This document shows, piece by piece, positions 22,188 through 22,319 of a stretch of 64,000 nt of DNA. A program made the translations under genes and the position numbers. Source of the stretch: Bacteroidota bacterium. Its GTDB lineage: Bacteria; Bacteroidota; Ignavibacteria; UBA10030; UBA8401. The notes beneath the pieces are model-generated. The model searched no databases and was not told the origin of the DNA. It worked only from the letters and a program-made list of their open reading frames with translations. The stretch's first letter is position 1, and each line of letters opens with the position of its first letter. Location of the stretch: the NCBI GenBank assembly GCA_008933835.1, contig WBUG01000002.1:62929-126928 (forward strand). The letters are read 5' to 3'.

Positions 22188-22190
22188 GTC

Positions 22191-22219
22191 TTGACACGAT
22201 GATAAAAAGAGCCTATATT
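22191..22219 (+). promoter_or_regulatory. sigma70-consensus promoter (TTGACA-N17-TATATT)
   Basis: ttgaca at 22191-22196 and tatatt at 22214-22219 give an exact -35/-10 consensus with a 17-nt spacer. Confidence 0.4.
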
Positions 22220-22279
22220 GGAAACGGAAGATACGATTAAAGTTTCCTACAGATTTGACCAGCATTATGCTGGTTTTTT
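22220..22279 (+). ncRNA. candidate short structured RNA / leader: two hairpins, the second a Rho-independent terminator
   Basis: ggaaac(22220-25) pairs with gtttcc(22242-47). A ccagc-attat-gctgg stem at 22259-22273 is followed by T6. Confidence 0.3.
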
Positions 22280-22319
22280 CTGGGCGTTGTGGAAACTAAA
22301 AATAATATAAAAGTATCCT

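Follow-up and report, generated by a model that had tools for sequence, protein, structure and literature searches.

What does an almost perfect promoter do directly in front of a terminator, and does an operator placed behind that terminator gate it? These questions are raised by the 132-nt gap between panB (21369–22187, Pfam Pantoate_transf) and a tetR gene in the window, that is, in the whole stretch of 64,000 nucleotides that we analysed. The gap has a G+C content of 33–40%, compared with ~63% for the genome. A first-pass annotation had seen here a promoter followed by two hairpins, and had proposed a small RNA, an attenuator of the TetR-efflux operon, or simply a panB terminator with a coincidental promoter in front. 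We compared the region across 80 genome loci, 20 metagenome loci (18 of which were examined for the inverted repeat described below) and two single contigs. In our reading, which we consider probable, the gap controls an autoregulated TetR-efflux operon, and in it a TetR-controlled promoter, P1, faces a promoter-proximal terminator. The features are collected in Table 1.

Table 1. Features of the panB–tetR gap and of the first operon genes, in window positions.
Feature	Position	Strand	Remarks
P1 −35 hexamer, TTGACA	22191–22196	+	exact or near-exact at the same position in ~45 related loci
P1 −10 hexamer, TATATT, after a 17-nt spacer	22214–22219	+	in ~45 loci TAnnnT directly adjoins box A (gap of 0 nt)
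Box A, GGAAAC-N16-GTTTCC ("hairpin 1" of the first-pass annotation)	22220–22247		abuts the −10 hexamer; occurs with TetR homologues across phyla
Predicted short P1 transcript, ~53 nt	22226–22279	+	inferred from promoter geometry; runs from G22226 through the last T of the T-run
Intrinsic terminator, stem GACCAGCA/TGCTGGTT, loop TTA, T6 at 22274–22279	22257–22279	+	position conserved, 35 loci
Candidate promoter P2, TTCTGG (22278–22283), N17, AATAAT (22301–22306)	22278–22306	+	weak; overlapped by box B
Box B, GGAAAC-N16-GTATCC	22291–22318		11 nt past the T-run, 1 nt before the tetR ATG
tetR, TetR/AcrR-family regulator, 211 aa, presumed binder of the boxes	22320–22955	+	Pfam PF00440
HlyD/YbhG-like membrane-fusion adaptor	22933–23934	+	PRK03598, 207 bits, below its cut-off
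Two ABC ATPase genes (23944–24861, 24858–25799), then ABC-2 permease gene(s)	23944–25799	+	gene order as in L002

The promoter P1 and its link to tetR

P1 matches the sigma-70 consensus at 11 of 12 positions. Sites with at least 10 of 12 matches occur just three times in the 64 kb, both strands counted, and P1 is one of them; the local 2.5 kb holds two promoter-like sites where 0.4 would be expected. Additionally, the position of P1 and its 17-nt spacing are kept in ~45 orthologous loci. The TTGACA-N17-TATATT motif at 22191–22219 that had been picked out at first sight is hence present and conserved, and judged by these comparisons P1 is a real sigma-70 promoter, its position being held to the base. 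From promoter geometry the predicted start is G22226, 7 nt past the −10 hexamer.

How closely the whole module is preserved can be seen in locus L002, whose TetR is 66% identical and whose genes follow the order lpxC/fabZ, lpxA, lplA-like, panB, tetR, hlyD, ABC. Its module reads TTGACA-N17-TATCTT, GGAAAC-N16-GTTTCC, then CCAGTATTATGCTGGTTTTTT, then again GGAAAC-N16-GTTTCC, and is nearly superimposable on that of the window. The two modules are 75% identical, against 68% identity in the tetR coding DNA and 74% in that of panB. The genomes differ by 16 points in G+C content (63% for the window genome, 47% for L002), yet the module is at least as well preserved as the coding DNA on either side. 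On this evidence, the module is under strong selection.

Could the hairpin nevertheless be the terminator of panB, with a promoter-like sequence in front of it by chance? The panB gene ends at 22187 with no other terminator, and the hairpin with its T6 would indeed stop panB transcripts as well. But the module also occurs behind genes other than panB, a peptidase-like one among them (L016, L029, L012), at a distance of 300–400 nt from the end of panB (L004, L009, L014), and next to a divergent upstream gene (L031, L036, L038, L041, L042, L055), and the promoter keeps its position to the base. Since the upstream gene varies among the relatives, the module belongs to tetR and not to panB. The comparative data thus rule out the coincidence put forward earlier, a reading to which we give practically no credence.

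A near-consensus promoter, TTGACA-N16-TATATT, is also found at 53041–53068; no other site of this quality in the window shares the exact TTGACA of P1. It precedes by ~70 nt a small HU/IHF-like gene (MGKAMTKSQIAAHFANKFGLKKKV..., 53134 onward) that carries an AAGGAG ribosome-binding site (Shine-Dalgarno), which indicates that the organism uses canonical promoters. The third site with at least 10 of 12 matches, TTGATA-N17-TATATT at 55057–55085, is located at the end of the open reading frame 53877–55040 and upstream of those near 55162–55764. A metagenome contig that is 99% identical to the window (L084, Ga0268299_1026162) has its first base at window position 22207, which falls within the P1 spacer, 19 nt before the predicted start.

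The inverted repeats as DNA sites

The element first described as hairpin 1, about 7 nt downstream of the −10 hexamer, begins in fact at 22220 with GGAAAC and leaves a gap of 0 nt. The 5′ arm (GGAAAC, 22220–22225) corresponds to −6 to −1, the discriminator region, and the 3′ arm is GTTTCC at 22242–22247, so that the repeat, which we call box A, spans −6 to +22 of P1. As GGAAAC abuts the −10 hexamer, the 5′ arm lies upstream of G22226 and outside the predicted P1 transcript. A second copy, box B, had escaped the first-pass annotation; both boxes are oriented like tetR. With zero or one mismatch allowed, they are the only two copies in the 64-kb window. Two matches with two mismatches each, at 12755–12782 and 31370–31397, are at chance level.

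The same box was found within ~250 nt upstream of a tetR homologue in nearly all of the 80 genome and 18 metagenome loci. The taxa include Ignavibacteria-like Bacteroidota, KSB1, Zixibacteria, Acidobacteriota, Cloacimonadales and Verrucomicrobia, and further Nitrospira, Planctomycetes, Spirochaetes and one Paenibacillus. In the distant phyla that we checked, the genes behind tetR again code for HlyD, an outer-membrane efflux protein (OEP) or ABC components. Homologues of this TetR are numerous in uncultured Ignavibacteria-like Bacteroidota. Among solved structures no close homologue was found (best E = 9e-14, to uncharacterised TetR proteins).

The arrangement around the box takes four forms. 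The order promoter, box A, terminator, box B is found in 35 loci, including the window. Other loci (L011, L019–L028, L032 and others) have two boxes 84–92 bp apart and no terminator, and a third group (L008, L040, L069 and others) has a single box, with the promoter leading through it to the ATG. Finally, in L012, L030 and L097 a consensus promoter runs straight into the terminator, with box A lost or degenerate and box B kept. The coordinates for these are L012:2880–2990, L030:2860–2930 and upstream of 1174 in L097, and the predicted transcripts have ~25–45 nt. The relatives without a terminator, with two boxes (e.g. L020, L027) or one (L008, L040), show that other members of the family use P1 as the promoter of the operon.

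Where two co-oriented boxes are present they are 63–96 bp apart, except for three loci with 138–162 bp. The distances between box A and box B cluster at ~67–74, 81–86 and 92–96 bp with almost nothing in between. The cluster centres of ~71, 84 and 93 bp give steps of ~12 and 9 bp, no clean 10.5-bp series, and the clusters track clades; they could reflect helical phasing, DNA looping or simply clade structure.

Is the box a DNA site or part of an RNA? The second possibility would make hairpin 1, together with the terminator, a structured leader, a riboswitch-like attenuator or an sRNA that controls read-through. Both inverted repeats could fold if they were transcribed from upstream, and C-to-T changes in the 3′ arm keep G-U pairs (22 G-U at pair 1–28). 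Against this, the 5′ arm of box A at −6 to −1 is outside the P1 transcript. Moreover, an alignment of 84 boxes reveals no compensatory change in the arms (0 in 83 distinct boxes), where variation is one-sided or pair-breaking (several changes break pairs), although the boxes were gathered at no more than two arm mismatches, which limits the power of this covariation test and partly builds in the arm conservation. The interior of the box and its position are free of this selection. Indeed, the interior is conserved asymmetrically (A12, A14, mostly C15, A22), and position 7, where the transcript is predicted to start, is mostly G in box A and mostly T in box B. A possible inner helix GAAAC-N7-GTTTC, pairing positions 11–15 with 23–27, has 71% paired cells and is no better than shuffles.

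The position of the box relative to the promoter in other lineages argues in the same direction. In six Ignavibacteriaceae/Melioribacteraceae loci (L044, L047, L049, L054, L060, L064) an extra box, whose interior measures 17 nt and which lies ~60 nt before tetR, encloses the −35 hexamer, so that it is not transcribed from that promoter. The layout there is GGAAAC-nnnnnn-TTGACA-nnnnn-GTTTCC with a normal box after the −10 hexamer, and two operators flank the −10 hexamer in place of the terminator layout. The single box of Verrucomicrobia, Nitrospira and Planctomycetes starts 0–8 nt past a TTGAC-like −35 candidate. Among the lineages the box is thus found elsewhere as well, over the −35 hexamer or over the spacer.

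We therefore read boxes A and B as DNA sites, most plausibly operators, and not as RNA hairpins. They are inverted repeats that overlap or adjoin the promoter of the regulator's own operon, the motif accompanies orthologous regulators across taxa and is rare elsewhere, and, with the caveat on arm selection, it is conserved by sequence and not by base-pairing. Hairpin 1 as an RNA element did not hold up: part of it is outside the P1 RNA, it does not covary, and it is one of two copies linked to tetR. Genome scans should take this as a caution: what looks like an RNA hairpin beside a promoter may be a short inverted repeat to which a protein binds.

The adjacent TetR is most likely the protein that binds the boxes. 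Its recognition-helix region, SKKTxYKFFPSK, is almost invariant among proteins that are just 42–66% identical overall, which fits a conserved DNA target. The 22 bp between the arm centres are too long for one TetR dimer, and this could point to a different regulator such as a global factor, with only an indirect link to tetR. We regard such a regulator as improbable. The box tracks this TetR subfamily over at least eight phyla regardless of the neighbouring genes, and its only two copies in the 64 kb are both at tetR. Moreover, some 28-bp operators, that of QacR for example, are known to accommodate two TetR-family dimers, so we predict, by analogy, a two-dimer binding mode on each box.

QacR binds its 28-bp IR1 operator downstream of the qacA −10 hexamer, and the likeness goes further. 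In both cases the repressor gene is adjacent to the efflux operon, an inverted-repeat operator covers the start-site region of a strong promoter, as in TetR-type regions in general, and the 28-bp operator is compatible with two dimers. The window differs in having two co-oriented operator copies with an intrinsic terminator between them. A literature search for GGAAAC-N16-GTTTCC with its asymmetric interior gave only irrelevant matches and no description of the motif. While autoregulated TetR control of efflux is known, the cross-phylum operator is newly defined here, and the layout promoter–operator–terminator–operator is unusual. The boxes are thus the predicted cognate operator of an uncharacterised, very widespread TetR subfamily found before YbhFSR-like ABC efflux operons in at least eight phyla, a prediction that permits regulons to be predicted and offers a DNA target.

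The terminator and the predicted short RNA

The second hairpin, which had been called a terminator from its ccagc/gctgg stem and T6, is a real intrinsic terminator, judged by the sequence comparisons. The stem-loop (22257–22275, core CCAGC 22259–22263 and GCTGG 22269–22273) has an 8-bp stem and a 3-nt loop and is followed by the six T residues; its calculated energy is ~−10 kcal/mol and its probability in the ensemble is 1.0. In 35 loci a hairpin with a T-run is found between the boxes, and the T-run ends 7–13 nt (mostly 9 or 11, and 11 in the window) before box B. The terminator sequence differs between clades, so that it is the structure and not the sequence that is conserved. In the clade of the window, compensatory double changes are seen in four of seven stem pairs; in a second clade the stem is invariant and offers no variation by which pairing could be tested. 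Covariation of the RNA type is hence found in the terminator stem and not in the boxes.

The terminator is also kept where the upstream gene is divergent or where no co-directional upstream gene exists, and we conclude that it stops transcripts from P1. The hairpins of the module are of moderate strength, with a median of ~−8 to −9 kcal/mol and none below −15.2 kcal/mol. For leakiness we compared them with other sites having a hairpin and T5, a background set that is dominated by non-terminators.

A transcript that starts at G22226 and ends with the T-run would have ~53 nt in the window, in line with the 50–55 nt foreseen in the first-pass annotation and a straightforward prediction from the sequence; across the loci the predicted P1 RNAs have a median of 68 nt. 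In these RNAs the terminator hairpin is the dominant fold with a probability of ~1, and folding revealed no antiterminator or competing fold. The segment 22225–22285, which had been proposed for folding, gives z = −3.4, a stability carried by the terminator hairpin. In the short RNA the spacer varies in length and in sequence, and no sequence is conserved beyond the operator-derived 5′ part, which argues against an sRNA that acts by base-pairing.

Searches against Rfam, also suggested at the outset, did not reveal a family for the candidate RNA. No family reached its gathering threshold in the whole 64-kb window, and a local search with E up to 10 gave only sub-threshold terminator-like matches besides one to CRISPR-DR43. 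Rfam sRNA and leader families resemble the predicted RNA in being short transcripts that end in a Rho-independent terminator, and the best local matches cover the terminator only (RyhB, 14.8 bits against a threshold of 55; isrK, 13.9 against 50). The CRISPR-DR43 match, on the minus strand at 22273–22301, has 22.3 bits against a 35-bit threshold and E = 0.23; it covers the complement of the T-run and the start of box B, belongs to no repeat array, and we dismiss it as chance.

With no antiterminator fold, no conserved sequence of aptamer size and no Rfam match, an RNA-level control element made of hairpin 1 and terminator appears highly improbable to us. From the earlier proposal of an sRNA or attenuator, the short transcript and the attenuator survive in modified form, while the structured RNA based on hairpin 1 does not.

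Possible routes from P1 to the efflux operon

In the model of a TetR-controlled P1 that faces a terminator, TetR bound to box A would block initiation at P1 or promoter escape. Release of the repressor would let P1 initiate near G22226, and the majority of polymerases would terminate at the hairpin and T6, leaving 3′ ends at 22277–22280. The operon mRNA would arise through read-through, through initiation at a weak second promoter beneath box B, or through a combination of the two. Box B would add another lock, by acting as a roadblock for polymerases that read through or by covering the second promoter. We favour read-through, since P1 keeps its consensus form in all lineages and, where the terminator is missing, serves as the promoter of the operon; the terminator would accordingly be an attenuator and an insulator. 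The recurrent layout promoter–operator–terminator–operator–gene predicts an abundant short RNA that depends on the inducer.

Several observations fit this model less well. A terminator directly past the promoter of an operon is an unusual design and counts against it. If the terminator is efficient, read-through alone may be insufficient for expression of the operon. Furthermore, the three loci in which P1 and terminator persist after the loss of box A (L012, L030, L097) are not obviously explained by a lock with two operators, and no model so far accounts for the retention of a consensus promoter there.

Alternatively, the short RNA and the operon mRNA may come from two distinct transcription units. 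Both would be controlled by TetR: P1, box A and the terminator would form a gene for a ~53-nt sRNA, and the operon would be transcribed only from the candidate promoter P2. A P2-like geometry, with the −35 hexamer at −11/−10 from box B and a spacer of 16–17 nt, scores best in 21 of the 35 terminator-bearing loci. The −10 hexamer of P2 falls at box positions 13–18 and its −35 hexamer overlaps the end of the T-run, and relatives without the terminator have no comparable −35 hexamer at that position. That P1 and terminator are retained in the three loci despite the loss of box A suggests that the short transcript, or its synthesis, matters, and the terminator hairpin dominates the predicted fold. 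However, a −35-like G after the T-run is found in 21 of 35 cases compared with 17 of 39 at other terminators of the same loci (p = 0.17), and a TTG in this place, not being enriched over those other terminators, could not be counted as proof of P2. The −10-like hexamer belongs to the box consensus and is present in box A too. In the window P2 is weak and would leave a leader of just ~3–5 nt before the ATG. The proposed sRNA, for its part, has no evident seed region, is not conserved in sequence past the operator-derived 5′ part, and matches no Rfam family. Separate units are therefore, in our view, unlikely but worth keeping in mind.

Within the model of P1 facing a terminator, one further step is conceivable, namely that terminator and box B work as one device. 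TetR fixed 7–13 bp past the U-tract would stall the polymerase at or near the release site and would thereby tighten a moderately strong, leaky terminator, and the inducer, by removing TetR, would let a share of the P1 transcripts read into the efflux operon. Judged by the footprints of the E. coli polymerase, a stall exactly at the release site would call for a somewhat longer spacing, and for this reason we consider the idea of such a gate distinctly doubtful. If true, it would be an attenuator in which sensing is done by a DNA-bound repressor and not by RNA structure, a ribosome or an RNA-binding protein. To our knowledge, a constrained distance of 7–13 bp between a U-tract and a repressor site has no described counterpart.

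Promoter-proximal attenuators are alike in having a terminator in the leader and in giving mostly short transcripts. For a downstream operator such as box B the nearest analogues are the repressors that act as roadblocks. Protein roadblocks have been described for PurR, GalR, CodY, CcpA and LacI at O2 (review PMC10310618; PMC4132739). Like the sites of PurR, GalR, CodY and CcpA, box B could block an elongating polymerase, a roadblock action that we infer. In contrast to these attenuators and roadblock systems, the window has no leader peptide, no aptamer and no alternative RNA fold.

The genes downstream are organised as in the cecR(ybiH)-ybhGFSR locus of E. coli, with a TetR regulator, an HlyD-type adaptor (YbhG-like), ABC ATPase domains and ABC-2 permeases in the same order. 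The regulators are, however, non-orthologous (25% identity over 57 aa, in the HTH only, E = 3e-4). The region upstream of E. coli cecR contains a different palindrome and no GGAAAC-N16-GTTTCC, and in this short stretch, inspected by eye, no terminator was seen between promoter and gene. We rejected CecR/YbiH as the same system, given the non-orthologous regulator and the different operator; the operon organisation is analogous.

In the window, the open reading frame of the HlyD adaptor overlaps the end of tetR by 23 nt (22933–22955), an arrangement also annotated in contig L001 (94% identical) and suggestive of translational coupling. Upstream of panB, the segment 18200–21372 contains a fused LpxC-FabZ reading frame, lpxA (19814–20620) and a gene of the lipoate/biotin-ligase family (20617–21372), in the same order as in L002. 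The order LpxC-FabZ, lpxA, ligase is typical of the Bacteroidota/Chlorobi/Ignavibacteria group. Other A+T-rich islands, with less than 42% G+C over 60 nt, are located at 3121–3260, 7081–7160, 12661–12790, 30761–30990, 31161–31270, 40191–40260 and 52431–53880. In a window with 63% G+C these islands may be further regulatory regions.
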